Source of the DNA: Candidatus Saccharimonadales bacterium
Lineage (GTDB): Bacteria > Patescibacteriota > Saccharimonadia > Saccharimonadales > CAIOMD01
NCBI GenBank assembly: GCA_046350635.1
Contig: JAXLZY010000001.1
Span: forward strand, 11,897-75,896
Direction of reading: 5' to 3'
Length of the DNA stretch: 64,000 bases
Both the position numbers and the translations under genes were made by a program. The notes beneath the pieces are model-generated. The model saw only the letters and a list, made by a program, of their open reading frames with translations, made no database searches and was not told the DNA's origin. Below, in pieces: positions 527 to 51,387 of this stretch. Each line of letters starts with the position of its first letter. The stretch's first letter is position 1.

Positions 527-693
527 ACCCTCTACAACTCTTATATTTTAATGCTCCAACTATTATAGGTGTTATCCCCTAATTACACAACCATAAGCTA
601 CTTGATTGATTGCATAAAAATATGGTTCAATGATTTCAGAGGTTTTTGTACCTATTTATAAACATAAAAAACAGAGAGCGGCCAAACAGCGCC

Positions 694-2676
694 ATGTTCC
701 GCAAATTAGTTTCCAACCTACCCTTCCAACCAGCCTTACTGGGCCAGGTTTCTTTTTATTTGCACCGCATGCGTCAAGAACAATCACTACGACGAATCGG
801 TTTTGCTCTTATGGCAGTGGTGGTTGTACTTCAACTATTTGCCATGTTTTCACCTGCTAAGCCTTCACTTGCTACGAGTTCGGCAGATATTGTCTACGGT
901 GCAAATAGCCGCGCTGATGTACTAACTGCATATCGCAATAATCGCGACCAAATTGGCCACACAGATATACAGGCAATCTTTAATTATTATGGTATTGGTG
1001 CTGATCAAATCTCTAAAGCAGCTTTTGTTCACATTAGCGATGGAGATGGCCACGACTATATCAATACATCACGCAGTACTACCCGCTGGCAGGATACGTT
1101 TGTAAAAATACCGGGTGCATCTGATGGAGGTATATATGAGTTTCCACTTTCGTATTGGCGCCAAGGCCAATACCCAAATGGCTATCCCGCATTAACAGGT
1201 ATGAGTAGTTATGGGTTCCGATTTTGGATTTTACTAAAAGGTTGTGGCAACATTGTCTACGAAAAGGGTGCTAAAAAGCCTAACCTCGACATTGTTAAAA
1301 AACGTACCTCTGGAGCAACAGTTGCCCCAGGTGATACGACTACCTATTCAATAGAATTCAGGAACGCTGGGCTTGCGAATGCAAACGGTGTAACTATAAG
1401 TGATAAGCTTGCACCCGAATTTAACTATGTCAGCTATACGAGCAATGTTGATTTAAACTTCACGCGCAGTGGCCAGCAATTAACCTGGAAGATAAAAAAC
1501 ACTGGCAGTGTTCTTGCGCCTTCGTCGCGGTGGTTTACGATAACCGTTAAAGTAAAAGCTAAAGATATATCGGCTAATACCCAAAAGGTCTGTAATGCAA
1601 GCTCTATTGATGCCACAAACGCAGGTGCTGCTAGCTCTAGCGGTACTGATAGCGCCCATTGTGTGACTATTAGTAAACCCTTATGCCCCGGAACGGGCTT
1701 ACCGATTCCACCAGGTGGGGTCACTAAATGTAGCGTTACCTGCCCTGATGGCTCAACCGTTTCATACGATAAAACCTGTCCGGTACCACAACTAAGTTGC
1801 CAGTCACTACAGGTAGCTGCGGAACCAGCCTGGAATAGCCGTAAGTACGAAACCACTATTGTCATGCAAAAAGGCGCTGTCGCTAAACAAATTGATTATT
1901 ACGTAAACAACACTAAGGTGGGTTCACAGCCAATGACTACCGGCTCGACCAGCCAGTTCTTTACCTACACTTTCCCTAAAGAGGGAGATTACAAAGTACG
2001 GGCAGATCTCATTGCCACCACTGGCACCGTACAGCCAGGTGCAAACTGTGCCGTCACCGAAACAATCACTAAGCCGACCCAACCGACCCCTCGTATTACT
2101 ACTGATAAAGCAGTTACGAACCTAACGCAAAAAATTGCTGACGCCAACGGGACCACCGCCCACGCGGGTGATGTACTTCGCTATACCTTAACTATTGCCA
2201 ATACTGGCGATGCCCCAGCCACCGACTTTGCCCTTAGCGGTGAATACGGCGAAAATATCGCTGACATTATGGAGTATGCAGATCTTACCGATAAGGGTGA
2301 TGCCACCTTGAATGAAACAACAAAAGTATTAACCTGGGCACCGGTTACGATCCCAGCTGGCGGGCAGGTACAGAAAGTCTTTAGCGTCACTATAAAAAAC
2401 CCAATTCCAGCTACACCTACTTCTGTTTCTAATCCGTTATCGTTTGACTACGTTATGCACAATAAATACGGCCGAGACGTGAGCATTAACCTCGACAAAC
2501 CAGCCAACAAGATAATCGAACAAACGGCTACCGCCCTTCCAGAAACCGGCCCCGGCACTGGTATGTTCGTGACCGCAGTTATTGTTATGGTTGTTGGCTA
2601 CTTCTTTTACCGAAGTCGACTCCTTACAAAGGAACTTGAACTTGTACACCACGAATATAGCGCAGGAGGCTTATAG
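694..2676 (+). CDS. Secreted cell-surface protein with DUF11-like repeats and a C-terminal LPXTG (LPETG) sortase anchor
   Basis: Track ORF 646..2676; the likely start is MFRKLV at 694. It has a signal anchor, DUF11-like segments (GDTTTYSIEFRNAG.., GDVLRYTLTIANTGD..), a Cys-rich linker, and LPETG followed by a hydrophobic helix and a basic tail. Confidence 0.75.
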   Translation: MFRKLVSNLPFQPALLGQVSFYLHRMRQEQSLRRIGFALMAVVVVLQLFAMFSPAKPSLATSSADIVYGANSRADVLTAYRNNRDQIGHTDIQAIFNYYGIGADQISKAAFVHISDGDGHDYINTSRSTTRWQDTFVKIPGASDGGIYEFPLSYWRQGQYPNGYPALTGMSSYGFRFWILLKGCGNIVYEKGAKKPNLDIVKKRTSGATVAPGDTTTYSIEFRNAGLANANGVTISDKLAPEFNYVSYTSNVDLNFTRSGQQLTWKIKNTGSVLAPSSRWFTITVKVKAKDISANTQKVCNASSIDATNAGAASSSGTDSAHCVTISKPLCPGTGLPIPPGGVTKCSVTCPDGSTVSYDKTCPVPQLSCQSLQVAAEPAWNSRKYETTIVMQKGAVAKQIDYYVNNTKVGSQPMTTGSTSQFFTYTFPKEGDYKVRADLIATTGTVQPGANCAVTETITKPTQPTPRITTDKAVTNLTQKIADANGTTAHAGDVLRYTLTIANTGDAPATDFALSGEYGENIADIMEYADLTDKGDATLNETTKVLTWAPVTIPAGGQVQKVFSVTIKNPIPATPTSVSNPLSFDYVMHNKYGRDVSINLDKPANKIIEQTATALPETGPGTGMFVTAVIVMVVGYFFYRSRLLTKELELVHHEYSAGGL

Positions 2677-2678
2677 AT

Positions 2679-3266
2679 ATGAGTGAGCAACTTCGTTCGC
2701 ACGAACAACACACCTCACCCGAGGCTACAACTGAACATATCGATAGATTAAAAGATATCGAACAAAAAGCTCACGAAGCTCATCATGAACACGCTGAGCA
2801 ACTAGAGGCGATTCGCGCTAAAGTTGAGCACGAAGCCCACTCGGCCGAAGAAGTAAAAGACAAAGAAGAATCAGCTACTGAACGTCAGACACTACACCAT
2901 CACATTACAAAGCGCATCAAAAAAGAACAGTACCAGCAAACCCTTAAGCAGGTGCAATCTCATCTATCGAAGCCAGAGAAACGCTTTAGCAAGGTCATTC
3001 ACCAACCTGTGGTCGAAACGGCCAGCGAAGTTGGGGCCAAAACAATTGCACGCCCCTACAGCATTATTGGTGGTGCCCTATTTGCGATTATTGGTAGTTT
3101 TACGGTGCTTTCAATTGCTAAACACGTTGGTTTTGAAGTACCAAATAGTATCTTCTTTATTTTGTTTGTACTTGGTTACGTAGTGGCGTTATTAGTTGAA
3201 TTTGTGGTGCGTATGATTCGTAAAACGAGTCCAAAACACCGTAAACGCCACACGACTAGCTATTAA
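2679..3266 (+). CDS. Hypothetical membrane protein (His/Glu-rich N-half, two TM helices)
   Basis: Track ORF starting 3 nt after the upstream stop. The N-half is charged and HE-rich and the C-half is hydrophobic. No family recognised. Confidence 0.5.
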   Translation: MSEQLRSHEQHTSPEATTEHIDRLKDIEQKAHEAHHEHAEQLEAIRAKVEHEAHSAEEVKDKEESATERQTLHHHITKRIKKEQYQQTLKQVQSHLSKPEKRFSKVIHQPVVETASEVGAKTIARPYSIIGGALFAIIGSFTVLSIAKHVGFEVPNSIFFILFVLGYVVALLVEFVVRMIRKTSPKHRKRHTTSY

Positions 3267-9124: not shown

Positions 9125-9635
9125 ATGACTCTTTTTACCCAAAAATGGACTATTGTGTCTTTTATCTCACCTGTGCCAGAGGGTTTTGAATTTTCGTATA
9201 AAAATTGGCCTCGTCATATTACTATGGTGGATGTTTTTTTCCATTGATCGCGTTCAGGTCCAAGCGCTGCATGAGTTTCTTGTGCAAGTGGCTTCGAACC
9301 AATCACCCATTGAACTTACGCCATCCTCGACGACATATTTTGAATCGAATAATGATAGAGTTCTGGTTCAGCTGTACCAACAGCAAGAATCACTCCATGC
9401 GTTACATACCAAGCTAACCACCACACTCGAAGCCGACTATCACATCACGTTCAATAACCCTGAATATAGTAATGAAGGTTATATGCCACACGAAACGTTA
9501 GACACTAGTCCCGAGCTCGTATCACAGCAAAATATCATTATTGATAATCTCGCCTTGATTGATATGTTCCCGCATAAAAATGGCTATATGCGAAGGGTCG
9601 TTATGACGCTACCGTTCGGCAAGCACACGCACTAA
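9125..9635 (+). pseudogene. 2H phosphoesterase (LigT / 2'-5' RNA ligase-like) gene interrupted by a 1-nt frameshift in a T7 run
   Basis: Two HxT/Sx motifs lie in different frames: WPRHITMVDVFF (track ORF 9035..9247) and MPHETLDT (track ORF 9153..9635). The frames meet at TTTTTTT, 9234-9240. Removing one T joins ..HITMVDVF-SIDRVQVQ... Confidence 0.6.
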
Positions 9636-9681
9636 TCAAAAATATCGTTTGTAAGTTATACACAGTTTTAAAAAAATACCA

Positions 9682-9711
9682 TTGACAGTGCTTTTGCTTA
9701 TCTATTACTAT
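9682..9711 (+). promoter_or_regulatory. Sigma-70-type promoter (TTGACA, 18-nt spacer, TACTAT)
   Basis: Perfect -35 TTGACA at 9682-9687 and TACTAT at 9706-9711, read directly from the sequence. Confidence 0.45.
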
Positions 9712-9717
9712 GAGGCC

Positions 9718-9875
9718 AGCACTGAATAAAAAAAGTGCTCAAAAACAAAAACCTCGACTGCAAACAACGGCTTCTCGCAAGCCGTTGTTTCAAAGCAAAA
9801 AACGAGGTTTAAATACACATAAAAACGCCAAACCGAATCCTCTCATCGTCCGCAGCTCGATGAGAGGATTTTTAG
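9718..9875 (+). ncRNA. Candidate structured sRNA or attenuator leader upstream of comM
   Basis: Downstream of the promoter are: hairpin AGCACT/AGTGCT; a nested helix AAACCTCG..CGAGGTTT enclosing a perfect 12-bp hairpin (9762-9773/9779-9790); then the terminator AATCCTCTCATCG..CGATGAGAGGATT+TTT (9836-9875). No family recognised. Confidence 0.3.
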
Positions 9876-9915
9876 TTTCCATTCAACCAATTCTAAGCGT
9901 ACAATAACGATAGTT

Positions 9916-11418
9916 ATGGCCGTAAAAAGTCTCATCAATATTGGCTTTCAAAGTATCGAGATTGAGGTTGAGTGTAGCCTTACAAATGGCCTCCCTTCTA
10001 TGACAATTGTTGGCCTTGCCAGTAAGGCAGTTGATGAATCTAAGGAACGACTGCGAGCGGCTATTACTGCCAGTGGGTTCAGCTTTCCCCGTAAACGCAT
10101 TGTCGTCAACTTGGCACCAGCAGACATACCAAAAGATAGTGCCAGTCTAGACCTTGCTATTGCCGTTGCCTTATTGGCCGCTGATGGCCAAATCAAAGCT
10201 GATCTTTCTGATTATTTCTTTATCGGCGAACTATCTCTAGACGGTTCGCTACGACCAGTTCGCGGTATTATTGGTAAGCTCATGAGCCCGTTGTCACGTC
10301 AGTCGGCTGGCATCTTCATTGCCCATGATAATGCCAGACAGGCAGCGATTACCGATTCAGCTGCACCAATCTTCGCGGCCTCATCACTAAGCGATATCGT
10401 TATGCATCTCAATGCCACCAAGCCTTTATTGCCAGTTACTCACCTTACGCCAGATGCTCTCCATCACAAACTTACGACTAATACCGATTTTGCTGAAATC
10501 CATGGTCAAGATACAGCTAAGCGCGCACTTGTTATCGCGGCGGCTGGTGGACATAATGTACTTTTGTCTGGCCCGCCAGGGACTGGCAAATCGATGCTCG
10601 CAAAAGCATTTATTGGTATTTTACCGCCGTTGACAACCAGACAAATTATTGAGACTACACACATACATAGTCTTGCTAACATCACCTTTGATCAGTTAAT
10701 CATTGAACCACCACTTAGGTCACCTCACCACACTTCGAGTGATGTTGCCATTATTGGCGGTGGTCATAACGTTAGGCCGGGTGAAATTAGCCTAGCTCAC
10801 AACGGTGTACTCTTCTTAGATGAGCTACCAGAGTTTACTCGCCACACCATTGAGTCACTCCGACAACCACTTGAAGACGGTGTTATCACTATTGCGCGCG
10901 CTCAGCAAAGTGCACAATTACCCGCTCGATTCATACTAGTCGCCACTAGTAACCCATGCCCGTGCGGCTATTTATTTTCAGATAAGCCCTGTACCTGTAC
11001 TCCAGCTCAGATTCAAAAGTATCAAAAGAAGTTATCGGGCCCCATTATGGATCGTATCGATATGCACGTAACAGTTGGTATGGTCGAACATCGTAATATT
11101 TTAAAAGTTACCACCGAACGCACCAGCCCTGGGTTGCAAAAAAATGTTGCCCAAGCTCGTCGTATACAGTACGACCGCCAGCGACAAAAATTAAATGCCC
11201 GATTAAGCAATGCTGACCTCAAAAAATGGGCTCAGCTTGATACGGAAGGCGAAGAACTACTGGTTAAGGCTGCCGAAACACTCGGTTTATCGCCCCGCTC
11301 CTACGTACGTACCATAAAAGTTGCCCGAACTATCGCTGATATCGAAAATTCGACGGATATAAAAGCATCTCACATCGCCGAAGCGTTGCAATATCGACCA
11401 AGGCAATATACCTATTAA
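9916..11418 (+). CDS. comM: YifB/ComM family Mg-chelatase-like AAA+ ATPase
   Basis: Lon-like N-terminal domain, Walker A GPPGTGKSM, LFLDELPEF, and the Cys cluster NPCPCGY..CTC typical of ComM/YifB. Confidence 0.85.
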   Translation: MAVKSLINIGFQSIEIEVECSLTNGLPSMTIVGLASKAVDESKERLRAAITASGFSFPRKRIVVNLAPADIPKDSASLDLAIAVALLAADGQIKADLSDYFFIGELSLDGSLRPVRGIIGKLMSPLSRQSAGIFIAHDNARQAAITDSAAPIFAASSLSDIVMHLNATKPLLPVTHLTPDALHHKLTTNTDFAEIHGQDTAKRALVIAAAGGHNVLLSGPPGTGKSMLAKAFIGILPPLTTRQIIETTHIHSLANITFDQLIIEPPLRSPHHTSSDVAIIGGGHNVRPGEISLAHNGVLFLDELPEFTRHTIESLRQPLEDGVITIARAQQSAQLPARFILVATSNPCPCGYLFSDKPCTCTPAQIQKYQKKLSGPIMDRIDMHVTVGMVEHRNILKVTTERTSPGLQKNVAQARRIQYDRQRQKLNARLSNADLKKWAQLDTEGEELLVKAAETLGLSPRSYVRTIKVARTIADIENSTDIKASHIAEALQYRPRQYTY

Positions 11419-34588: not shown

Positions 34589-35797
34589 TTAACCACTTAG
34601 GTTCTTACCGGCGAGGCCATAGATTGGCATTAGTACTGCTCCAACAATAATCAGAGCAACCACACCAAGGACAATCATAAGTACGGGTTCGATTATGGTT
34701 GAGATTGCCTTAATCTGATCATCTACTTCTTTTTCGTAATAATCAGCTGTTTTGCTAAGCATTTCTTCGACCGAGCCGGATTGTTCACCAATACGAAGCA
34801 TGTTAGGTACTAATTCTAAGAAGTTTGGGTCGCCATCAATTGCATCAGCGAGGCTCTTACCACCTTTTACTTGAATTATGGCCCGTTGTATTGATTCTTC
34901 TATATATACGTTGTTGATAGATTTACCCGTAATATCTAGCATCTGAAGAAGTGGTACGCCACTAGCTATAAGAGTAGAGCCCGTGCGAGCAAAACGTGCC
35001 ATATATACTTTCATAAACAAAGGGCCGAATGGGGGTGTTCGCATTTTAACCTTGTCGATAAACCTCTTCCCTCCTAAGGTCCTAGCCCAACGAGAGCCAA
35101 ATACAACGGCCACAACAGCTAAAATTACAAATATCCACCAGAATTTTATAATAAATGATGATACTGCAAGTAATACATTTGTAATAAATGGAAGTTGAGC
35201 TCCTGGCATTCCATCATAGAGCACTTTTACCTGAGGTAATACCGTAACAAGCATAAACGTCACGACTGCAATCATGACAAATAAGACTATAATCGGGTAC
35301 ACCATTGCACCCCTAACCTTCGACTGTATTTCTGCGTCTTTTTCTTGCTGAAGCGCAAGTCGCTCTAATGCTTTATCTAGCGTACCTGATACTTCTCCTG
35401 CTGCTATGAGGTTTACAAATACCGTACTAAATGTGCGAGGATGCTTGCCGAGTGCGGAAGCAAACGATTGACCAGCCTCTACGTCAGATATTACCTCAGA
35501 AAGTTCGGCTTGGAGTGGTTTGCTGGCCGACTGTTTTTGCACCATACGCAAACTCTGTACCAATGGCAGGCCAGCGTTAATGAGTGTACTGAGCTGTCGG
35601 GCAAATAAAATTCTATCTTTAGATTTAACCTTCTTAAAAAAACCTTTGGCATCTTTATCAACTTGACTAATTTCGAGTGGAGCTAGGCCTTGTTCTTGAA
35701 TCAAACGTGCTGCCGCACGTTCATTTTCGGCTTGAACAGTTGATTTAACCTTTTGACCTGTAGCAGGATTTCGTGCCTCGTAACTATAGGTAAGCAT
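34589..35797 (-). CDS. pilC: Type IV pilus platform protein (GspF family)
   Basis: Two GspF repeats (ARQLSTLINAGLPLVQSL / ARFARTGSTLIASGVPLLQML) with three TM segments. Confidence 0.85.
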   Translation of the reverse strand: MLTYSYEARNPATGQKVKSTVQAENERAAARLIQEQGLAPLEISQVDKDAKGFFKKVKSKDRILFARQLSTLINAGLPLVQSLRMVQKQSASKPLQAELSEVISDVEAGQSFASALGKHPRTFSTVFVNLIAAGEVSGTLDKALERLALQQEKDAEIQSKVRGAMVYPIIVLFVMIAVVTFMLVTVLPQVKVLYDGMPGAQLPFITNVLLAVSSFIIKFWWIFVILAVVAVVFGSRWARTLGGKRFIDKVKMRTPPFGPLFMKVYMARFARTGSTLIASGVPLLQMLDITGKSINNVYIEESIQRAIIQVKGGKSLADAIDGDPNFLELVPNMLRIGEQSGSVEEMLSKTADYYEKEVDDQIKAISTIIEPVLMIVLGVVALIIVGAVLMPIYGLAGKNLSG

Positions 35798-35798
35798 T

Positions 35799-36869
35799 CT
35801 AGCCTCGCATTAGCCTATCTAGCTCATCTAAATCAACGGCGTAGTTACGAGCTTCATCGTACGTTATAGTTCCATTATGTATGAGGCTTACAAGTGTTTT
35901 ATCCATACTCTGCATGCCAAACTCTGCACCGGTTTGAATAACAGCATCAAGCTGGTGTGACTTACCTTCACGGATAATATTACGTACAGCGGGTGTTGCA
36001 ACCAAGATTTCAGCCGCAGCAACGCGCCCGCCACCAATTGAGGGTACTAAGCGCTGTGACGTAATGGACATTAAAATGTTACTAAGCTGTGCGCGAATTT
36101 GAGGCTGCTGATGCGGCGGAAAGACGTCAATCATACGGTCTATACTTTGAGCAGCACTGTTAGTGTGCAGGGTTGCGAATACTAAGTGCCCCGTTTCCGC
36201 AATTGTAATAGCCGCAGCTATGGTTTCAAGATCGCGCATTTCTCCAATCAGCACAACATCAGGATCTTCACGCAAGCTACTTCGTAAAGCTGCACTAAAG
36301 CTAAAGGTATCGTAGTGAACTTCGCGCTGAACAATAATACTTTTTACGCTTTTATGGGTAAATTCAATTGGATCTTCGATGGTAATAATATGGTCTGCGC
36401 GCTCGTGATTTATTTTATGGATGAGCGCTGCAAGCGTAGTTGACTTACCTGAACCAGTCGGCCCGGTAACTAATACGAGGCCACGTGGATAGTCGGCAAA
36501 CTTATTAACAATCTGTGGCAAGCCAAGTTGTTCAATTGTTAAAATCTCGTTCGGAATAAGACGTAATGCCGCTGCTAAGTTACCCCGCTCGTGGAAAGCA
36601 TTAACACGGAAGCGACCTAAATCACCAAAAGCAAAACTGAAGTCGAATTCTTTATCCTTAAGCAAAATTTGCTTTTGGTCTTCGTCTAAAATAGCGAAAA
36701 CGAGTGCCTCTACACCTTCTTCGTTGAGCGGATCAGTACCGCTTACTGGCTTTAAAGCACCATCTACGCGTAGCATAGGAGGTAGCCCAACCTGTAAATG
36801 AAGGTCGCTTGCCTTCTTTTTAATTACTTCTTCTAGTAGTATTTCTATTCTTGGTTGTGCTTGTTGCAT
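35799..36869 (-). CDS. pilT: Twitching motility retraction ATPase
   Basis: GLVLVTGPTGSGKSTT, the AHLVFATLHTNSAAQSIDR box, and a size of about 350 aa lacking the GspE N-domain. Confidence 0.85.
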   Translation of the reverse strand: MQQAQPRIEILLEEVIKKKASDLHLQVGLPPMLRVDGALKPVSGTDPLNEEGVEALVFAILDEDQKQILLKDKEFDFSFAFGDLGRFRVNAFHERGNLAAALRLIPNEILTIEQLGLPQIVNKFADYPRGLVLVTGPTGSGKSTTLAALIHKINHERADHIITIEDPIEFTHKSVKSIIVQREVHYDTFSFSAALRSSLREDPDVVLIGEMRDLETIAAAITIAETGHLVFATLHTNSAAQSIDRMIDVFPPHQQPQIRAQLSNILMSITSQRLVPSIGGGRVAAAEILVATPAVRNIIREGKSHQLDAVIQTGAEFGMQSMDKTLVSLIHNGTITYDEARNYAVDLDELDRLMRG

Positions 36870-36889
36870 GTGTGTTGTTTCACCCCTTA

Positions 36890-38680
36890 TTACGCGCTAT
36901 CTGATGCAGCTACACGATTTACTTCGCTTAGCGTCGTCTTACCAGTTAGTGCTTTAAAGTACCCATCCTGCTGCATGCTAATCATGCCTTGTTTTTGCGC
37001 CATCTCTTGGATTTCTGCGCTGGTCGCCCGTTTGATTATGAGGTCTTGGATTTCTTCGGTAACATTAAATACCTCATATAAACCCATTCGCCCCTTATAA
37101 CCGCTTTGGTTATTTGGGGTTGGCGTACCCTTAAACAAAGTATAAGCGTTTTGGCCCGCCAGTGGCAAGTCGCCGTAGGCTAAATCGTCAACTACTGCTT
37201 TCTTTTCTTCTTCTGTCTTGGGTAATAATGCACCGACTGCAGAATTTATAGCTTCAACTTCTGGCTTAGTTGCAGCATAGCCTTCTGGTTTGCCGGCTAT
37301 ACGCCGTACTAGTCGCTGACCGATAACAGTACGGACTGTGCTCGCAATCAAAAATGGTTCAATATCCATATCGAGCAAACGTGGCAAAATACCCGCTGCA
37401 CTATTGGTGTGCAACGTGCTTAACACTAAGTGACCCGTTAGGGCTGCCTGAACAGCTAAGCTAGCTGTTTCTTTATCGCGGATTTCCCCTACCATTACGA
37501 CATCAGGGTCTTGGCGCAAAATACTACGCAAGCCACTTGCGAATGTTAAGCCAACATCTGCATTAACCTGTATCTGGTTAATGCCATCCATTTTATACTC
37601 AACAGGGTCTTCAAGGGTAACAATGTTAATTTCGTCGCTCTTAATTTCTTGAATAAGCGCATATAAACTTGTTGATTTACCCGAACCAGTTGGCCCAGAG
37701 GTTAGAATCATACCGTTTGGATTCTTAATGCCTTCGCGGATAGTTCTTAGAGCCCGGCCACTATAGCCCATGTCCTCTAACTTTAAGCTTGTTCCAGTTT
37801 TATCAAGTAAGCGAATAACTACTTGTTCACCCCACACAACCGGGCTAATGGCGATACGTAGGTCAATGGGCTTTTTATCTACGATAACCGTAAACTGACC
37901 GTCCTGCGGAATACGGTGTTCGTCAATTTTAAGGTTCGATAAAATTTTTATACGGCTTACCAATGGGGGTTCGGTAGCTTTAGGAAGCTTCATCACCTCC
38001 TTAAGCACGCCGTCAATTCTGCATCGTATTTTTAGTTCTTTTTCAAGTGGTTCTATATGAATGTCACTTGCTCTATTCTTGGCGGCATAGTCTAAAATCG
38101 CCGAGAGTGCTTTACTTATTGGCGAATCTTGAACAATGGTTTGGATATTCTTATCTGAAGCTTGTTGTGACTGCTGTCCTTCAACTACAACCGATTGGGC
38201 TCCACCACCCAAGGCATCCGCAACATCTTTACCAACATCAAGTTGATACTGCTTAAGTACGTTTTCTATACCCTCTTGGCTTGCCAAAAAAACTTTGAGC
38301 GGTCGTCCAATGCGATTTGCCAAAAAATCGACTGCCTGCACATTGTCGGCGTCTAGCATAGCGACGACAAGACGATTCTGCATTTCACCCAGTGGTACCG
38401 CCATATAACGAGCAGCTATTTCTTGTGGTAATAACGAAAGAATTTTAGGGTTAACCTTGGCGTTAGATAAATTAACATAGGGTACTTTAGTGACCTGAGC
38501 GATGGTCTTCGTTAAATCTTCATTGCTGACATGATTTTCCGATACCAATAATGATAAAAATGGTTGGTTGTCGGCCGTTGCTCTGGCATGAAGTTTTTTT
38601 AACTCATCTGACGATATCAAACCGTTTTGAACAAGTAATTCCTCTACTTGCTTCTGTGTATCCGCTAGCAGGACGCTCAT
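36890..38680 (-). CDS. pilB: Type IV pilus assembly ATPase (GspE family)
   Basis: T2SSE N-domain, MILTSGPTGSGKSTSL Walker A, GHLVLSTLHTNSAAG. Confidence 0.85.
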   Translation of the reverse strand: MSVLLADTQKQVEELLVQNGLISSDELKKLHARATADNQPFLSLLVSENHVSNEDLTKTIAQVTKVPYVNLSNAKVNPKILSLLPQEIAARYMAVPLGEMQNRLVVAMLDADNVQAVDFLANRIGRPLKVFLASQEGIENVLKQYQLDVGKDVADALGGGAQSVVVEGQQSQQASDKNIQTIVQDSPISKALSAILDYAAKNRASDIHIEPLEKELKIRCRIDGVLKEVMKLPKATEPPLVSRIKILSNLKIDEHRIPQDGQFTVIVDKKPIDLRIAISPVVWGEQVVIRLLDKTGTSLKLEDMGYSGRALRTIREGIKNPNGMILTSGPTGSGKSTSLYALIQEIKSDEINIVTLEDPVEYKMDGINQIQVNADVGLTFASGLRSILRQDPDVVMVGEIRDKETASLAVQAALTGHLVLSTLHTNSAAGILPRLLDMDIEPFLIASTVRTVIGQRLVRRIAGKPEGYAATKPEVEAINSAVGALLPKTEEEKKAVVDDLAYGDLPLAGQNAYTLFKGTPTPNNQSGYKGRMGLYEVFNVTEEIQDLIIKRATSAEIQEMAQKQGMISMQQDGYFKALTGKTTLSEVNRVAASDSA

Positions 38681-38692
38681 GTAGCAGTCTCG

Positions 38693-38938
38693 CTAATTAG
38701 ACTTAAATGGTTGATTATTCGTGCTGTCGCCAATCACAATATTCTTTGTTGGGTTGAGCGCATTGCTATTGAAGTACGTAGTATTTGGTTGCTTAAAATC
38801 CGCCGAAATTGCATCAATAGTTGGGGCTTTTAAATTATATGACTTTTCACCACCAAACAGTAAATTTGCAAGTACGAAACTAAGTACTCCACTAACAAAT
38901 GCAACGACTAGGATTAATACTATATCTTTTTGTTTCAT
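38693..38938 (-). CDS. Small single-pass membrane protein in the pilus operon
   Basis: Track ORF with the TM helix IVLILVVAFVSGVLSFVLANLLF. Its start overlaps the upstream stop. Confidence 0.45.
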   Translation of the reverse strand: MKQKDIVLILVVAFVSGVLSFVLANLLFGGEKSYNLKAPTIDAISADFKQPNTTYFNSNALNPTKNIVIGDSTNNQPFKSN

Positions 38939-39642
38939 TACTTTTTACTCCCCGTTGCTTTGGTGACAGTTTTTTTAGTTGTGCCGTTACTTACAACCGT
39001 CTGCTTTAAGTCGAGTGTCCGTTCTGGTTGATAGTACGTTTTTGCAGATACATTTACTTGTAAATTAGAGCTATCGCCCGAAATATCAAGCGATGTTACC
39101 TGAATTGGCCTAATAGAACGCTGTAAATCGGCTATTAATTTTTGAACCGTAGTAAAATTACCAGTTGCGGAAATTTGAAACGGTATCTCGGTTGCCTTTG
39201 GGTTACTGCTGGCCTGCTCTGCCTGTGTTTCATTATCGGTCCCGGTGATACCAGACACACTTGCACCACTTCCGGAAATTAATCCATCTAGGCTTGTTGC
39301 AAGCGCCGGAAAGTCATACTTACTTGGCAGCGCATCTAGAATGACCTTGGAGTTTTTATCTTTTGTTCCGATAACAGATTCGGGAGCATCATCAAATGCT
39401 TTATACGCAATTACAAGTGGTTCGACAGCCTTTACGTTTGCAACTAGTTGCTTATTTGCTTTCGAACGTAGTGAAATTACTTTATTCTGATATTTCATTT
39501 GTTTAATTAATGCCATAGAGCCAACAATGGAGAAGATGACAATGGCCACACTTACAGATATAGCAATTACTGCAAATTGATTTGCTTTATCTATTTGCAG
39601 GTGCTTGTTTGAAAATTTTAGTTTGCCGCCTAGATTTGCCAT
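38938..39642 (-). CDS. pilO: PilO-like pilus alignment protein
   Basis: Single N-terminal TM helix followed by a coiled segment. The call rests on its position after pilM-pilN, not on a motif. Confidence 0.5.
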   Translation of the reverse strand: MANLGGKLKFSNKHLQIDKANQFAVIAISVSVAIVIFSIVGSMALIKQMKYQNKVISLRSKANKQLVANVKAVEPLVIAYKAFDDAPESVIGTKDKNSKVILDALPSKYDFPALATSLDGLISGSGASVSGITGTDNETQAEQASSNPKATEIPFQISATGNFTTVQKLIADLQRSIRPIQVTSLDISGDSSNLQVNVSAKTYYQPERTLDLKQTVVSNGTTKKTVTKATGSKK

Positions 39643-39644
39643 GT

Positions 39645-40325
39645 TTATTGCCCTTGTTGTGAATCTGCTTTAAATAAGTCCGTTGGCTGTTCGGTTTGAG
39701 ATCTAGTAGATGTTATCTTTGGAACTACGAGCGTAACTTTTTTGTTCGAGCTATTAAATATTTCTGGATTGTATTTTAGCGTAATAGTATAGGTCGCCTG
39801 ACCATCTTTTCTTGTAAAGTTAACTAAAACTACTTCTGAAAACGCAGGTTTTTGATCAGTACTATCATCAACAGTAAATTTAGTAAATTTTAGTGTATCT
39901 GCAAACTTATTTACAGATTCTAATGTTTTTGCGCCGCCAGTAAACTGCATCGTAGGATCAGCAAAATTCAAATTGAGAGACGATATCTGAACATCATTCG
40001 GTGTAATTTGTGGTAAGAATTCAAATAAACGTGTTGTGACTGGCTTATTATTATGTAAACCCTCAAGAGTATTGAGCTGATTTTGAACCGTTAATATTTT
40101 ATCTAAATCTGAAACTTTATTGAGCGTTTCGCTATTTTTTTTAATTTCACGGTCATAGTAGCTAAGCTGGACTTTTTGTGCTCCATACACAACTGAGCCG
40201 ACAATCACTAAAATACCCAGACTGACGCCAGAAATCACAATTGCGCTGAGCAGTATCATACGCTTGCTGCGCTGAGCTTTGATGTACTTAACCTTTACAT
40301 CGGGGAGTAGGTTGAGCTGTATCAT
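39645..40325 (-). CDS. pilN: PilN-like pilus alignment protein
   Basis: MIQLNLLP.. N-terminus typical of PilN, followed by a TM helix. It overlaps pilM by 4 nt. Confidence 0.6.
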   Translation of the reverse strand: MIQLNLLPDVKVKYIKAQRSKRMILLSAIVISGVSLGILVIVGSVVYGAQKVQLSYYDREIKKNSETLNKVSDLDKILTVQNQLNTLEGLHNNKPVTTRLFEFLPQITPNDVQISSLNLNFADPTMQFTGGAKTLESVNKFADTLKFTKFTVDDSTDQKPAFSEVVLVNFTRKDGQATYTITLKYNPEIFNSSNKKVTLVVPKITSTRSQTEQPTDLFKADSQQGQ

Positions 40326-41362
40326 TCTATTCGCTCCGCTAAGCCAGCTGCTACACCAAAGTGATTAGACACTGCGAGTAGTTCATTTTGCCTATCGGCC
40401 GGGAATGTTACATTACGCCATGCGTTACCAATTTCAACATTAATGCTAAATTTATTTGCGATAAAGAGCGGAAACTCTGGTAGGGTCGACGCACCACCGG
40501 TGACAATTATTCGCTCTAATGGCACATTCGGGTATCTTGTCTGGTAAAATTTAATCGATTTCTCAATTTCCCCAACCAATACTTCGACAGTACCGATTAT
40601 TGCGTTATAGATTTGGCCTTCAAGCTTATCTTTACTTAGGCCAAACTTATACACAAATTGTTCTGCCTGCTTTTCATCTATGTTTAGGTTTTGAATAGCT
40701 GCTTTTAGAACCGTGTCGGTACCTGTTGGGATTGAACGCATTAAGCGTGGTCCGCCCGCTACAGAAATTACTAAATCTGAAGCTAACGCCCCCATATCAA
40801 CTACCATTTGAGCACCGGTAGCATCTGTCGGTATTATTGCGCGCGCAAGTGCCAATGTATCTGGTTCGAATGCAATAACATTAAGTCCTACGCCTTCGAG
40901 CATATCAAGTCGCGCTTCTACAAATTCATTTGCAACGCTAGAAAGTAAAATTTCAACTTTATTTGCATCTTTAGGTGAATCACCTAATAATGCCCAGTCA
41001 ATTTTGCTTTCGTCTATAGGGGTTGGAATTAAGGTGTCAGCTTGATATTGAATAGTTTTTTCAAGTTCCGCTTTGCTCAAGCGCTCTATATCAACAACAG
41101 TGCTAAAAACACGTTGCGATGGCAAGCCAACTACAACATTCTTGGTTGAAACTTTAGATTGTCCCACCAATTCTTTTATAATGCCTGCTACTTTTTGTTG
41201 ATCTGCTTTCGCGTCACTTAATACTAATTTCGAATCTACCGGCACTAGTGCATATTTGACGAGTGCCTTTACCGGTCCACCACCCCTAAGCTGTACAAGC
41301 CTAATTGCAGAGGTGCCGATATCGAGACCAAAAAAGTCCGTGACGCCACTAAGGACGCTCAT
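40322..41362 (-). CDS. pilM: Type IV pilus assembly protein PilM (actin-like ATPase fold)
   Basis: FGLDIGTSAIRLVQL.., VVDMGALASDL, TGGASTLPEF: actin/FtsA-like phosphate and adenosine motifs. Confidence 0.8.
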   Translation of the reverse strand: MSVLSGVTDFFGLDIGTSAIRLVQLRGGGPVKALVKYALVPVDSKLVLSDAKADQQKVAGIIKELVGQSKVSTKNVVVGLPSQRVFSTVVDIERLSKAELEKTIQYQADTLIPTPIDESKIDWALLGDSPKDANKVEILLSSVANEFVEARLDMLEGVGLNVIAFEPDTLALARAIIPTDATGAQMVVDMGALASDLVISVAGGPRLMRSIPTGTDTVLKAAIQNLNIDEKQAEQFVYKFGLSKDKLEGQIYNAIIGTVEVLVGEIEKSIKFYQTRYPNVPLERIIVTGGASTLPEFPLFIANKFSINVEIGNAWRNVTFPADRQNELLAVSNHFGVAAGLAERIE

Positions 41363-47929: not shown

Positions 47930-49012
47930 ATGAGTCTTTCTATCGGTATTATTGGTCTACCCAACGTTGGTAAATCAACGCTATTTAATGCCCTTACCAA
48001 TAACAATATTTTGGCGGCTAATTATCCTTTTGCAACGATTGAGCCTAATACCGGAATTGTACCTATTCCTGATGCTCGTTTAGACGAGTTAGCGAAGCTA
48101 TATAACAGCAAGAAAGTAGTGCCCGCAACTGTTGAGTTCACTGATATCGCCGGTCTAGTCGCTGGCGCCAGTAAAGGTGAAGGATTAGGTAATCAGTTTT
48201 TGAGCCACATTCGTGAGTGCGCCGCAATTGTGCAGGTTGTGCGTGACTTTACCGATGGCAACGTGATTCATGTTGATAACGAACTTCACCCATCTAAAGA
48301 CATTGATGTTATAAATACGGAGTTAGTTTTAGCAGATTTACAAACGCTTGATAAAACAATGCCTCGGCTCGAAAAAGAGGCTCGTGCCAACCCAAAACTT
48401 AAACCTACTGTTGAACTACTGCAAAAAGCGCATACACTCCTAGACGCCGGCACACCTATATATAGCGACGAAAACCTCCGCCAAGGGATTGCAGAATACA
48501 AGCAATTACAGCTATTGACTGCAAAGCCAATAATTTATTTGTTCAATGTCGATGAAGCCACATTAATAGATGCAAGTAAACAGGCTGAGCTTGCAAAGTT
48601 GGTAGCGCCAAGCCAATCATTGTTCGTAAATGCTAAGCTTGAAGACGAATTACGAAGCCTCGATGATGCCGATAGGACGGAAATGTTAAAAGAATATGGT
48701 GTTACTGAATCTGGTTTAATACAGCTCATACATGCAGCCTACGAAACACTTGGCTTACAAAGTTATTTAACAGCTGGTGAAAAAGAAGTTCGCGCTTGGA
48801 CAATACCCAAACAAGCCACTGCCCCACAAGCTGCGGGGGTAATTCATGGTGACTTTGAAAAAGGCTTTATTGCTGCCGAAATTGTTGATTACTACGATTT
48901 AATAGCTGCTGGCTCACTACCCGCTGCCCGTTCTGCCGGTAAAGTTCGTACCGAAGGAAAAACATACGTTATGCAACCAAACGATGTCGTTGAATTTAGG
49001 TTTAATGTCTAG
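47930..49012 (+). CDS. ychF: Ribosome-binding ATPase YchF
   Basis: IGIIGLPNVGKSTLFNALT, DIAGLV.GAS.GEGLGNQFL, and the C-terminal TGS-like AGVIHGDFEKGFI. Confidence 0.9.
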   Translation: MSLSIGIIGLPNVGKSTLFNALTNNNILAANYPFATIEPNTGIVPIPDARLDELAKLYNSKKVVPATVEFTDIAGLVAGASKGEGLGNQFLSHIRECAAIVQVVRDFTDGNVIHVDNELHPSKDIDVINTELVLADLQTLDKTMPRLEKEARANPKLKPTVELLQKAHTLLDAGTPIYSDENLRQGIAEYKQLQLLTAKPIIYLFNVDEATLIDASKQAELAKLVAPSQSLFVNAKLEDELRSLDDADRTEMLKEYGVTESGLIQLIHAAYETLGLQSYLTAGEKEVRAWTIPKQATAPQAAGVIHGDFEKGFIAAEIVDYYDLIAAGSLPAARSAGKVRTEGKTYVMQPNDVVEFRFNV

Positions 49013-49071
49013 TTTCACTGTTTATACACGAACTCTTTTGTAAAAGTTGATCTATAAAAAGTGATGTGCCC

Positions 49072-49106
49072 GGGTGGGCGCGCGTAATTGCTACGCGCGC
49101 CCACCC
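49072..49106 (-). terminator. G+C-rich perfect 15-bp hairpin downstream of the island gene
   Basis: GGGTGGGCGCGCGTA-ATTGC-TACGCGCGCCCACCC. On the minus strand a T-run (CTTTTTAT) follows within about 10 nt. Confidence 0.6.
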
Positions 49107-49121
49107 TAGGCGATGCTGACC

Positions 49122-49955
49122 CTAGCGGTGCGAGCCAGACGGCTTGCGCCTCGTCGCGAGCACCAGTGCGGTGCCAACGGCAAGGAAGAGAGCCGCCAGT
49201 CCGCCGGTGATGCCGGCAGACGCCGTGTTGTCTCCACCCGTCTTGGCCAGCTCCGTCGGCGGCTTGCTGGTGGAGGTGGGCGGAACGACGCTCGATGTCG
49301 CCGGGGGCGACGACGGCGGCTGGGTCGCCGGCACCGTCTGCGACGGCGTCGGTGTGGCACTCGGCGTCACAGACGGGGTGTCCGTGGGCGTCGGCGTCGG
49401 GGTGTCGGTCGGCGACTCGGACGGCGTGTCCGAAGGCTCCGGCGACGGTGAGTGGCACTCGACGAAGAAGATCTTCCCCGCCTTGTAGCCACTCTTGCCG
49501 TGACCCTGCGGGTACACGACATAGTCGAGCTGCGGGCCGGTGTAGACATCGGCTTGGAACCAGCCGCAACCGACGACCGACTTGGTGACCGAACCGGTCG
49601 TCTTCCCCGCAGGGATGATGATGGTGGTGCGGCCCCACTCGTTGAACGGCTGGCCAGAAGCCGAGCCGTTCCACTTGCCCGAGCCATCGTACGTCTCGGG
49701 GAGGGTGTAGATGTCACCGAACGCGACCGCGAGCGGTTCGCATGCCGGCTTCGGAATCGAGGCCGTGAAGGTGACGTCGAGGTCACGCTGCGAGAGCGAT
49801 CCCTTGACGGTCGACTTGTCGACTACCCGGACGCAGTCCTCGGACTGCGTCGGGTTCGGCGACGACTCGGTTGCGCTGGCACTCGGGACGAACCCGAACA
49901 TGCTGACGATGATGGTCACAGCGGATGCGGCCAGAGCCGCGGTGCGGAATCGCAC
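49122..49955 (-). CDS. Secreted cell-wall-anchored protein with an LAKTG (LAXTG, class E sortase-type) sorting signal; high-GC foreign-looking gene
   Basis: GTG start preceded by AGGGAAGAG. Signal peptide ..VPSASA, a ~150-aa four-Cys domain, a PT/S-rich linker, then ELAKTGG plus a hydrophobic helix and an RRK tail. It is the only one of about 9 overlapping ORFs here with protein-like architecture. Confidence 0.75.
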   Translation of the reverse strand: MRFRTAALAASAVTIIVSMFGFVPSASATESSPNPTQSEDCVRVVDKSTVKGSLSQRDLDVTFTASIPKPACEPLAVAFGDIYTLPETYDGSGKWNGSASGQPFNEWGRTTIIIPAGKTTGSVTKSVVGCGWFQADVYTGPQLDYVVYPQGHGKSGYKAGKIFFVECHSPSPEPSDTPSESPTDTPTPTPTDTPSVTPSATPTPSQTVPATQPPSSPPATSSVVPPTSTSKPPTELAKTGGDNTASAGITGGLAALFLAVGTALVLATRRKPSGSHR

Positions 49956-50052
49956 AGCTCTTCCCTCTTCTCATACTAGGGTCTTGCTGTTAATCGCACG
50001 GCGGGACTGCCGTACTGCAAACCGTACAGTCTCCCATACAGTTCAGCGTACA

Positions 50053-50082
50053 ATTATAACATATTTTATGCTATTTTGTCAA
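50053..50082 (-). promoter_or_regulatory. Consensus sigma-70 promoter (TTGACA, 18-nt spacer, TATAAT) facing the island gene
   Basis: The reverse complement reads TTGACAAAATAGCATAAAATATGTTATAAT. The -35 lies 5 nt past the stop of the upstream gene. Confidence 0.6.
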
Positions 50083-50086
50083 TACT

Positions 50087-50698
50087 TTACAGATTAAAAT
50101 AATCGTTATGTCTCTTAATAAGACGGTCAGCTTTTTTACCAAACACATATACATCGGGGTTATCACCATTGCGTAGTACTCGCTCGAGTCTATCGCATAG
50201 TTTTTTTGCACTACCTACCTCTGTTATAAGTGTATTGTCATAAACAACACGCGGTGAACCCGTTTGCTCTGTTGAGTAGCCTTCGGTTGCGTATAAATCT
50301 GTTTTTTCTGCTGGTAAAGCGCCTACCTGAAAGGTTAATACATACCGTTGTCCTGTCACACCATGCCCTGCCGGTATGTCCGCCAGTAGCTCTGCACTCA
50401 CTACTTTATAAAAAGTACCTACTGAAGGTGATCTGTTTTCTTGATGCGGACTGCGGTTACGATGCGTAACACTTAATAACCAGTAGTTGGCACTGTCGCT
50501 AACAACCGTTTGTAGTCGAAATTCTGACTGATTGTTTTGCAACGAACCAATAATAATGTCATCGAGCTGGGCTGGGGTGTAGGCGCCCAGAATAATATCT
50601 TCGAGTCCGCTAGCGACTTCAAATTCTAGCTCAGCCAAAGCCTGCTTTTCTTGCTTTTGATTGGCTTCGTTATTGAATGGATCTTGTTCGGTAGACAT
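50087..50698 (-). CDS. Hypothetical protein (203 aa)
   Basis: Track ORF with normal local composition. No motif recognised. Confidence 0.45.
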   Translation of the reverse strand: MSTEQDPFNNEANQKQEKQALAELEFEVASGLEDIILGAYTPAQLDDIIIGSLQNNQSEFRLQTVVSDSANYWLLSVTHRNRSPHQENRSPSVGTFYKVVSAELLADIPAGHGVTGQRYVLTFQVGALPAEKTDLYATEGYSTEQTGSPRVVYDNTLITEVGSAKKLCDRLERVLRNGDNPDVYVFGKKADRLIKRHNDYFNL

Positions 50699-50743
50699 CT
50701 GATTACTCTTAATGTACTACGAGAGAAGAAAAAGTAAAGCTAT

Positions 50744-51352
50744 CTATCGTTGAGCGGAACCACCACTAACGACCGAATCAAGTAAGGATTTAATCTTAGC
50801 CGCGACACGACCTTTTCGATTGTTCTCTTTTGAAATACGAAGGCTTTCTTCTTCAGTTAAGGTGCCTTCTGGGTTAGGCTCCATACCTTCGGCTTGCAAT
50901 ACACCCATTGGCAGTACCCCACGAGCACGCTGTGCTTCTACGGCGTAGTAAACGGTTGTAAATTCTTCGGGCGCGGGACGTGCATTGGCAATGACGTCTG
51001 CGAGATTACTTACCCCTGCTGTAGATAATTTTTCAGGATGATCTTCGTCTTCGATACCACCTGAAATCCAAACTAAACCATCAGGGCTCATCACATAACA
51101 TACTCGCTGTTTATTGTCGGTAATGTCATCAATCTTCGTTTCAGGACCGCGCTCATCAGTTTTACCGGTGATAGCAAAAATGCGATTAGTATTAGTCTCT
51201 ATAAGTGTCGGGAGTCCGGCTTGATTAGACGTTAGCCCTTGTTCAAAAATTTTAGACGTAACAGCTTGATTAAGCGCATTAACTGCGTGACGATACTCTA
51301 CTGTACCATCGCTGATATCTATTGATTGTGGATTTTTATTTTCAATGCTCAT
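50744..51352 (-). CDS. Hypothetical protein (202 aa)
   Basis: Track ORF with no motif recognised. Its promoter -10 ends only 6 nt before the ATG. Confidence 0.45.
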   Translation of the reverse strand: MSIENKNPQSIDISDGTVEYRHAVNALNQAVTSKIFEQGLTSNQAGLPTLIETNTNRIFAITGKTDERGPETKIDDITDNKQRVCYVMSPDGLVWISGGIEDEDHPEKLSTAGVSNLADVIANARPAPEEFTTVYYAVEAQRARGVLPMGVLQAEGMEPNPEGTLTEEESLRISKENNRKGRVAAKIKSLLDSVVSGGSAQR

Positions 51353-51358
51353 GCATAA

Positions 51359-51387
51359 ACATTAGCATTTTATTGCTATTTTGTCAA
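51359..51387 (-). promoter_or_regulatory. Promoter (TTGACA, 17-nt spacer, TAATGT) inside the tlyA 3' end; predicts a leaderless or near-leaderless mRNA for 50744..51352
   Basis: The reverse complement reads TTGACAAAATAGCAATAAAATGCTAATGT, followed by TTATGC and then ATG. Confidence 0.45.

Follow-up and report, generated by a model that had tools for sequence, protein, structure and literature searches.

How does a lone gene with actinomycete-like codon usage come to lie in the low-GC genome of a Patescibacterium? The question is raised by a 64,000-nucleotide stretch of contig JAXLZY010000001.1 (Candidatus Saccharimonadales bacterium, assembly GCA_046350635.1; hereafter, the window), in which positions 49066–50045 form a G+C-rich island around one gene for a 277-residue protein with the architecture of a sortase-anchored surface protein. 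Saccharibacteria are obligate epibionts of Actinomycetota, and to our knowledge little beyond type IV pili has been identified that attaches them to these hosts. A sequence-only reading of the window had proposed that the gene was captured from such a host. We find that the island is real and that genes like it recur at one variable locus of Saccharibacteria. The account we favor, with moderate confidence, is that the gene is an older xenolog: its subgroup, rich in G+C at third codon positions (GC3), would have come by way of a high-GC Gram-positive (Actinomycetota-like) genome, been exchanged later among Saccharibacteria, and would encode a wall-anchored surface protein.

The island is compositionally foreign and encodes one protein

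The island is as abrupt as the sequence-only reading had described it. We counted 650 G or C among its 980 nucleotides (66.3%), against 43.8% for the remainder of the window, which places it at z = 8 relative to 611 other 980-bp windows (mean 0.438, sd 0.028, maximum 0.494). Within it, 200-bp windows peak at 0.735 G+C, while the 1-kb bins of the 64 kb lie at 0.36–0.49 with the sole exception of 49001–50000 (0.64). Two hand counts made in the earlier reading, 41/60 for 49141–49200 and 21/60 for 48961–49020, were both exact. The flanking genes are ychF (47930..49012, +) and a gene for a 203-residue protein (50087..50698, –). Nine open reading frames (ORFs) of at least 50 residues overlap within the island, and coding periodicity was found only in 49122..49955(–), with G+C of 0.565, 0.604, and 0.856 at first, second, and third codon positions (GC1, GC2, and GC3), so the earlier claim of one real protein among about nine frames stands.

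The 49 other window ORFs have a mean GC3 of about 0.37, and no window gene, housekeeping genes included, prefers GC-ending codons. The 203- and 202-residue genes that share the gap with the island gene have a GC3 of 0.32–0.34. The window also holds, as had been noted, a native surface protein with an LPETG motif; this second sortase substrate (676 residues), which we place at 646..2676(+), is ordinary in GC3 (0.41). In the island gene GC1, GC2, and amino-acid composition are shifted as well as GC3. Its codon likelihood was –1.38 bits per codon under an Angustibacter model and –2.18 under a model of the window's own genes, and for native genes this pattern was reversed. Codon usage thus fits a 70%-GC actinomycete far better than the gene's own genome. 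Composition and codon usage together deviate from the recipient and fit an Actinomycetota donor, although any high-GC donor would fit equally well. The recipient itself is a member of the Saccharibacteria, as had been supposed: the window YchF is 60–82% identical to those of 80 loci of GTDB species representatives, nearly all labelled Saccharibacteria or Saccharimonadales metagenome-assembled genomes (MAGs).

The gene product resembles sortase-anchored surface proteins

The signal peptide, four cysteines, Pro/Thr/Ser linker, LAKTG motif, hydrophobic helix, and RRK tail that had been read from the translation are all present in 49122..49955(–) (Table 1), and the architecture matches that of a single wall-anchored surface protein of the sortase type. 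The GTG start lies behind the purine-rich ribosome-binding region GAGAAGAGGGAAGAG and aligns with the ATG of the ortholog, which confirms the start that had been assigned. We judged the signal peptide (MRFRTAALAASAVTIIVSMFGFVPSASA, followed by TE) by inspection rather than by predictor: its n-region is basic, its core is hydrophobic, and it ends at an ASA site (...PSASA before TESS). The domain that follows carries the motifs YxLPxTYDGSGxFNxSAxPQ, CGWxQxDxYxGP, and YPxGHG, with conserved cysteines at 41, 72, 130, and 167. AlphaFold2, supplied with a 27-sequence alignment (A1), predicted an all-beta fold (predicted local distance difference test, pLDDT, 92.3; predicted template modeling score, pTM, 0.83). 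Foldseek on this domain model returned only generic immunoglobulin (Ig)-like and Fn3-like sandwiches (GH3 C-terminal domains, CARDB; E ≥ 1e-3, TM 0.27–0.43). Because these matches are generic, we draw no function from the fold beyond that of a displayed beta-sandwich module. The domain matched no Pfam family and, in a profile search, no PDB sequence. The linker varies by indels between orthologs. Compared with the ortholog, the island gene has a ratio of nonsynonymous to synonymous divergence (dN/dS) of 0.27 over its whole length and 0.16 in the domain, purifying selection that marks its product as a functional protein.

The earlier reading had taken LAXTG, through class E sortases, as an actinobacterial signature, and this part of it fails. 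The 72%-identical ortholog, P0002 (P and L numbers denote proteins and loci), has LPKTG in place of LAKTG, and LA and LP variants are present in all clades of the domain family. Sortases adjoin family members in related loci, and their scores suggest that they are class-F-like and not class E: those of L058, L059, and L094 matched class F best (94, 37, and 30 bits; cut-off 166), while the class E model gave about 19 bits for L058 and L059 and no match for L094. The C-terminus of the island protein gave weak NCBIfam matches to LPXTG_anchor (TIGR01167; 15.6 bits, cut-off 15.9) and strep_LAETG (NF041528; 15.4 bits, cut-off 30). The model for the LAETG-anchored SCO1860 family (NF041527) reached 20.6 bits against a 200-bit cut-off over the C-terminal 75 residues only, and we rejected membership of that family for lack of a full-length match at cut-off.

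Sortase-anchored LPXTG and LAXTG surface proteins are well known from Gram-positive bacteria, for example as class E substrates of Streptomyces and Corynebacterium. The island protein shares with them the tripartite sorting signal, signal peptide, Pro/Thr-rich stalk, and globular Ig-like passenger domain. It differs in that its passenger has no Pfam or PDB relative and its anchor scores below curated cut-offs, and it differs from class E substrates in that LAKTG and LPKTG alternate among orthologs, that the relatives' sortases are class-F-like, and that the organism is a Patescibacterium. Following the LPXTG paradigm, we propose that the Sec signal peptide would be removed, the C-terminal helix and basic tail would retain the protein in the membrane, and a sortase, class-F-like as in related loci and encoded outside the window, would cut LAKTG between Thr and Gly and link the Thr to peptidoglycan. 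The Pro/Thr stalk would then display the 140-residue, disulfide-stabilised beta-sandwich, most likely an adhesin or host-contact module, at a locus that adjoins type IV pilus genes. The protein probably acts at the interface of epibiont and host.

Table 1. Features of the island and its locus in the window, and GC3-rich relatives of the island gene on other contigs
Feature	Position	Strand	Description
Sigma-70-type promoter	50053..50082	–	TTGACA-18 nt-TATAAT with TG before the –10 box; 12/12 consensus matches against 0.3 sites expected in shuffles
Structured 5′ leader	49956..50048	–	About 93 nt; minimum free energy –31.9 kcal/mol, z = –3.3; ends in the ribosome-binding region
GTG start and Sec-type signal peptide	49872..49955	–	Residues 1–28, read from the translation
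Four-Cys beta-sandwich domain	49452..49871	–	Residues 29–168 (140 residues); alignment A1 and AlphaFold2
Pro/Thr/Ser-rich low-complexity linker	49251..49451	–	Residues 169–235; presumed wall-spanning stalk
C-terminal sorting signal	49125..49250	–	LAKTG (residues 236–240, 49236–49250), 28 mostly hydrophobic residues, RRKPSGSHR tail; stop 49122–49124
3′ hairpin	49072..49106	–	Arms 49072–49086 and 49092–49106; perfect 15-bp stem with a loop of 5 nt, 16 nt past the stop codon
ychF–tlyA intergenic hot spot	49013..51375		Holds the cassette and two low-GC orphan genes (203 and 202 residues)
P0007	L086 (238-kb contig)		tlyA, four small genes, P0007, then converging ychF; GC3 0.82, neighbours 0.19–0.36
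P0044 and adjacent 322-residue secreted protein	L090		Between tlyA and ychF; GC3 0.89 and 0.84, neighbours 0.33–0.49
P0042	L093		Contig shared with ychF and a serine recombinase/TIR/caspase island; GC3 0.84, neighbours about 0.40–0.62
P0010, P0011, P0013	L094, L097, L098		Each then sortase; GC3 0.80–0.83, neighbours 0.37–0.67

The island has the form of a single transcription unit

Read in the direction of the gene, the island would be one transcription unit, with a native-type AT-rich promoter, a structured leader, a GC-rich coding sequence, and a conserved GC-rich 3′ hairpin. The promoter sits in A+T-rich DNA directly after the stop of the 203-residue gene, and the G+C rise starts at about the predicted transcript start. 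Between the window and contig L002 the promoter is 85% conserved, despite saturated third codon positions in the adjacent gene, and equivalent AT-rich promoters lie upstream of the relatives in L086 and L090. The leader is 91% identical to L002 (290–386), above every coding part of the island gene. It folds into two or three hairpins and could act as a regulatory RNA confined to these cassettes; neither the leader nor the 3′ hairpin matched an Rfam family.

The 3′ hairpin (free energy –41 kcal/mol, z = –7.9) marks the low-coordinate edge of the island, and homology between the window and L001 stops exactly at 49065. The window has a single copy of its outer-stem motif, where 0.04 were expected. 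It had been described as a 15-bp G+C-rich terminator that travelled with the gene. The perfect 15-bp hairpin is there, but a terminator scan left it uncalled, with its T-run beginning 11 nt past the stem; because of this displacement it is not a canonical intrinsic terminator. Nor does it appear to be baggage from a donor. It is a feature of Saccharibacteria cassettes, whose outer stem GGTGGG...CCCACC is kept after the stop of related genes in L001/L002, L086, L090, L085, and L007 (L001 964–999; L007 13775–13807; L085 1207–1256; L086 about 11255–11305; L090 about 11315–11370), and it was not seen in the flanks of the two Actinomycetota homologs described below. Five of 17 pairs in the conserved hairpin retain pairing through changes on both sides, and the changes in the inner stem are compensatory. 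A canonical terminator is usually found downstream of it in related cassettes. The hairpin may be an mRNA stabiliser, an I-shaped terminator, or a recombination site.

Two other kinds of element were considered for the island and rejected. An integron-type gene cassette does not fit a locus without an integrase and a hairpin in which, by inspection, there is no attC core (RYYYAAC/GTTRRRY). A diversity-generating retroelement target does not fit a gene that is GC-rich throughout and not in one short variable region; no template repeat or reverse transcriptase was noticed nearby, although no dedicated search was made.

GC-rich surface genes recur in the tlyA–ychF gap

The exact island protein is encoded on two other assemblies. 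Locus L003 (Logan, SRR30909889) matches window positions 48818–50116 at 100% identity and covers both junctions; L004 (ENA ERZ15186094), at 99.8%, spans the upstream one. The ortholog P0002, on contigs L001 and L002, likewise lies in an island of 0.6–0.7 G+C with flanks of 0.3–0.45, and in L002 its gene comes after an ortholog of the 203-residue gene.

We found ychF(+) and tlyA(–) as convergent neighbours in 70 Saccharibacteria loci, separated by 11 bp to 6.5 kb (68 gaps measured). The closest GTDB relatives have short gaps, of 24 bp (L005) and 581 bp (L006), and the gaps of L086, L090, and L064 hold cassettes; presence at the syntenic site is thus patchy among close relatives. Only 6 of 1010 ORFs in the 80 loci scanned were GC3 outliers; five of these six lie in the ychF–tlyA gap, and at least four have a signal-peptide-like N-terminus. 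All 11 genes examined at or near the locus have a GC3 of 0.79–0.89. Each close relative with a readable contig is GC3-rich in a Saccharibacteria-type context, which for these contigs was inferred from synteny with tlyA, ychF, and pilus genes (Table 1). The type IV pilus genes pilM, pilN, pilB, pilT, and pilC lie at 34589–41362 of the window, with five unannotated genes between them and ychF. A pilM gene is downstream in L094 and L098 and a homolog of the large pilM-adjacent gene in L097, where the partner sortase is itself GC-enriched (GC3 0.64 against 0.37–0.61).

Several other loci bear on how these genes are built. In the closed Saccharibacteria chromosome OY969928.1 (L064), a lone 342-residue LAETG protein (9232–10260, –) fills the gap; its gene has a G+C of 0.64 in a locus of 0.455 and a GC3 of 0.85, where the median of the locus is 0.38. 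The anchor of the protein passes the cut-off of the NCBIfam LAVTG anchor model NF058582 (Microco_LAVTG), and its N-terminal half is homologous to P0005 (33%, E = 1.6e-14). P0005 is the first of a tandem pair of GC-rich secreted-protein genes in L085 (1–1604; Logan SRR27900774), between which lies an AT-rich spacer that carries a promoter-like sequence of its own. P0005 and the window protein have the linker stretch PSSPPATSSVVPPTST in near-identical form, and a second domain of P0005 (ICEIGQ...) recurs in P0007 and P0009, which suggests modular shuffling between cassettes. Beside tlyA in L007 (DALYDK010000007.1, 13106–14281, –) are two secreted-protein genes with a GC3 of 0.50–0.52 against 0.26 for their neighbours, one of which has the same type of hairpin downstream. 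These may be partly ameliorated cassettes.

The domain family is shared by Saccharibacteria and high-GC genomes

A HMMER search with the mature domain, exhaustive over 1.84 billion representative proteins from libraries built on about 15 billion proteins (Logan assemblies of the runs that contain the cassette among them), found 34 relatives. The nearest are all Saccharibacteria-borne, with domain identities of 90%, 55%, 51%, and 43% (P0002, 72% overall and about 90% in the domain; P0007, 55%; P0009 and P0044, 51%). The recent host capture that had been proposed does not survive this result: the closest homologs are Saccharibacteria genes of similar G+C at the same tlyA–ychF locus, and we conclude that there was no fresh capture from the present host. 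Homologs from high-GC contexts are 32–37% identical to the window domain in alignment A1 and 41–47% identical over the HMMER-matched stretches. The 277-residue protein has no relative among GTDB species representatives, and the domain has none in IMG/VR, phage collections, plasmid collections, or JGI metagenomes. A degenerate DNA motif for YDGSGxFNxSAxPQ found two Actinomycetota MAGs only. P0003, P0004, and P0006, hits of a full-protein search, were discarded as spurious matches to the low-complexity linker.

We sorted the family into three classes. Class (a) is a large native low-GC Saccharibacteria subgroup of 225–245 residues, mostly LPxTG; a profile search added 78 further clusters, of which every organism-named one is Saccharibacteria or Saccharimonadales, and the one genomic context checked (L096) has a GC3 of about 0.31 and is a different locus. 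Class (b), small and high in G+C, lies on contigs that are high-GC throughout and whose composition it shares (L088, L089, L100, L101); its members are P0016 (Angustibacter sp. MAG, MGL5858162.1), P0021 (Actinomycetota MAG, MGL4173105.1), P0035, and P0024. Class (c) comprises the GC3-rich copies inside low-GC Saccharibacteria genomes. A histidine in the last four residues occurs in 6 of 10 class (c) proteins, 7 of 7 of class (b) type, and 2 of 86 of class (a) (Fisher p = 6e-6). P0012 (MFS8118793.1), labelled "Microcoleus sp.", comes from a 2.6-kb MAG contig, probably a mis-binned Saccharibacteria or actinobacterial fragment, and was disregarded.

The island protein resembles the native low-GC family of about 230 residues (P0036, P0038, P0062, P0068, P0071; all annotated "hypothetical protein") in phylum, signal peptide, four-Cys domain, Pro-rich linker, and anchor. 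It differs in that identity is only 27–38% and in that the native tails are Lys-rich (KRR/KRQ) without terminal His, with a motif that is almost always LPxTG. With the high-GC homologs (P0016, P0021, P0035, P0024) it has in common a similar length (246–293 residues in the homologs), for most the same architecture, high G+C, a Pro/Thr linker, and (except in P0024) the His tail. Unlike the island gene, however, these homologs match their own genomes in G+C, lack the conserved hairpin in their flanks, and form a separate clade. The proposed link to hosts is therefore upheld in part: homologs of the same architecture do occur in high-GC contexts, two of them in labelled Actinomycetota MAGs, but none exceeds 37% domain identity in A1. 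Our searches of the literature turned up no publication on Saccharibacteria surface genes that are GC-rich or of LPXTG type.

In a neighbor-joining tree, distance-based on about 130 columns and thus weak evidence, P0016, P0019, P0021, P0029, and P0035 form a separate clade (94% bootstrap), while the class (c) clades stand apart from it (P0001, P0002, and P0007, 96%; P0008–P0014, 86%). The high-GC clade of this tree does not enclose the GC-rich copies.

The cassette appears to have been exchanged between lineages

Between the window and L002, synonymous divergence (dS) is 0.36 in the island domain and 0.7–0.76 in signal peptide and anchor, against about 2.5 in the 203-residue gene, whose third positions are 42% identical. 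Identity within the island gene is mosaic (domain 89%, signal peptide 65%, anchor 69%). The low dS of the island, with its conserved AT-rich promoter and leader, leads us to infer that the cassette was shared between the lineages after their genomes had diverged; the alternative to recent sharing is an unusually strong synonymous constraint on the cassette. Synonymous changes polarised with P0007 as outgroup ran from GC to AT at seven sites and from AT to GC at two, a comparison of low power with only nine informative sites. Taken together, the data point to a pool of cassettes that circulates among Saccharibacteria at a recombination hot spot and was seeded at least once from high-GC genomes.

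Lawrence and Ochman described compositional genomic islands as acquired by horizontal transfer and then ameliorated. The present island is like theirs in its sharp break of G+C and codon usage, its patchy distribution, and its position in a variable hot spot between conserved genes. It departs from them in consisting of one gene under a native-type promoter, without genes for mobility, and in an anomaly that is undecayed across lineages whose neutral sites are near saturation.

An older xenolog is the most probable of four explanations

Our preferred history begins with a domain family widespread in Saccharibacteria at native low G+C. The GC3-rich subgroup most likely passed through a high-GC Gram-positive (Actinomycetota-like) genome, of which the signs would be codon likelihood, the high-GC homologs of the same architecture, the C-terminal His, the GC-enriched sortases, and the flux from GC to AT. 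It would have entered the variable tlyA–ychF hot spot well before the present strain arose and homologous recombination would since have passed it between Saccharibacteria lineages and rearranged it.

Several results weigh against this history. In the libraries searched there is no close donor, none above 37% (A1), and the tree joins the high-GC clade to the low-GC Saccharibacteria clade (69% bootstrap) rather than to class (c), so that neither phylogenetic nesting nor a close donor homolog identifies an Actinomycetota donor. We found no flanking direct repeats beyond chance at the island, and no target-site duplication, integrase, or other mark of mobility in the window; a recombinase domain was absent from all five ORFs flanking the island. 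No sortase was found in the 64-kb window, part of a contig of 178,727 bp, either by tblastn with five Saccharibacteria sortases or by a six-frame scan for TLxTC; with that and the anchor scores below cut-offs, wall anchoring is argued from motif architecture, and the adhesin role, although most likely for the modelled domain, goes with fold matches that are generic. The most serious difficulty is the persistence of high GC3. The window and L086, whose YchF and TlyA proteins are 78% and about 72% identical, are near saturation at fourfold sites counted in conserved residues (observed and expected identity 0.39 and 0.28 in ychF, 0.40 and 0.33 in the island gene). In both lineages, nevertheless, fourfold-site G+C is 0.78–0.80 in the island gene and 0.34–0.49 in ychF and tlyA. 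One acquisition before the split followed by neutral amelioration should have left a GC3 near 0.6, and a single old acquisition of this kind therefore fails. Several entries, or some force that maintains G+C, must be assumed; a xenologous origin as we have set it out does not account for a GC3 that stays above 0.8 in lineages whose synonymous sites are near saturation.

The strongest competitor, which we nonetheless hold to be unlikely, is a native paralog whose G+C, and GC3 above all, has been raised and held by a gene- or transcript-specific force, be it mRNA or codon selection on a class of surface proteins or GC-biased gene conversion at a recombination hot spot. The family is indeed mainly Saccharibacteria, as the 78 further clusters show; the 11 genes keep their GC3 across lineages whose housekeeping fourfold sites are near saturation; the promoter is of native type, with G+C rising from about the transcript start; the GC-rich Saccharibacteria clades are not nested within the high-GC clade; and the locus bears signs of recombination. 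Unrelated secreted proteins in the same gap are GC-rich too (L064, the 322-residue gene of L090, L039, L043). However, the ordinary GC3 of the 203- and 202-residue genes indicates that the effect is not locus-wide, and that of the 676-residue LPETG substrate that surface proteins as a class do not share it. GC-ending codons are favored by no gene of the window, the shift extends to GC1, GC2, and amino-acid composition, and the His tail ties these copies to the high-GC clade. The net synonymous flux is apparently AT-ward, at the low power given above. Finally, the GC3 rise reported for GC-biased conversion in bacteria is far below the step from 0.37 to 0.86.

We give less credence still to an extension of the sequence-only reading, in which competent epibionts would time and again take up DNA of their present Actinomycetota hosts and replace the cassette with host alleles, a process that would keep it host-like. 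It would account for the actinomycete-like codon usage, the homologs of the same architecture in high-GC genomes, the mosaic identity within the gene, the high GC3 that persists despite saturation, and a location beside type IV pilus genes. Against it, homologs in host-type contexts reach at most 37% in A1 and 47% over matched stretches in libraries of about 15 billion proteins, and the Actinomycetota homologs lack the conserved 3′ hairpin in their flanks. The segment that the window and L002 recently had in common includes the AT-rich promoter and leader of Saccharibacteria type, which argues for exchange between Saccharibacteria and not from host to epibiont. Moreover, no strong sign of transfer was reported between TM7x and its Actinomyces host (McLean et al. 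2020, PMC7427843).

An assembly chimera, with host (Actinomycetota) DNA joined into a Saccharibacteria contig, had been the main alternative of the sequence-only reading and can be dismissed: it has only the abrupt G+C change in its favor, whereas both junctions are reproduced in L003 and L004, the same GC-rich-in-low-GC layout with homologous genes, mostly in the same tlyA–ychF gap, is found on six or more further contigs (one of 238 kb) that come from different samples and were built by different assemblers, the gap of the closed long-read chromosome OY969928.1 holds a GC-rich LAETG gene that is unrelated, and the island edges are a promoter and a hairpin and not arbitrary breakpoints.

Possible bearing on the epibiont–host interface

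The island gene belongs to an uncharacterised family of putatively wall-anchored beta-sandwich proteins common to Saccharibacteria and high-GC (Actinomycetota) genomes. Its GC3-rich subgroup, which recurs in a hypervariable locus beside pilus genes, supplies concrete candidates for attachment or host-range proteins, and the cassette offers a tractable case for studying inter-phylum exchange and compositional maintenance in a reduced genome. Since islands of this type are real, GC-based contamination filters should leave them in Patescibacteria MAGs.

A bolder idea, which we regard as doubtful but worth stating, is that the tlyA–ychF gap of environmental Saccharibacteria is a dedicated host-interface locus in which surface genes are kept at an actinomycete-like GC3 of 0.8–0.9. 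If so, upkeep could come from repeated recombinational replacement by alleles of high-GC hosts, or from selection or biased conversion acting on a transcribed unit with conserved leader and hairpin. On this view the composition would be actively kept up rather than the fading scar of one transfer, and the cassettes would be candidate determinants of the host specificity of the epibiont.

Other genes of the hot spot and window

The two low-GC orphan genes in the hot spot, at 50087–50698(–) (203 residues) and 50744–51352(–) (202 residues), encode proteins that belong to no Pfam family, and the 203-residue protein has no relative among GTDB representatives. These orphan genes have fast-evolving counterparts in L002 (67% amino-acid identity) and L086 (37% over 67 residues). 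In L001 and L090 another small conserved gene (195 and 200 residues, ending ...PYRED) lies between the cassette and ychF.

Beside ychF in L093 (734–8421; Logan SRR26912390) are genes for a large serine recombinase, an HTH_17 excisionase-like protein, two ThsB-type TIR proteins, and a caspase-like peptidase C14, an insertion that looks like a defence island using the same hot spot. In L058 (9188–11109) and L059 (9198–11478, –), the ychF–tlyA gap holds a class-F-like sortase together with a large GC-enriched surface protein, whose C-terminus has a hydrophobic helix and basic tail without a canonical LPXTG (e.g., ...VGSTGFGWYW...) and may carry a variant sorting signal.

At the other end of the window, the 676-residue LPETG protein has DUF11/DUF7927 repeats. 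Its gene is followed by a 195-residue ORF of no significant family (2679–3266, +) and by a DinB/ImpB-type Y-family polymerase gene (3256–4500, –).

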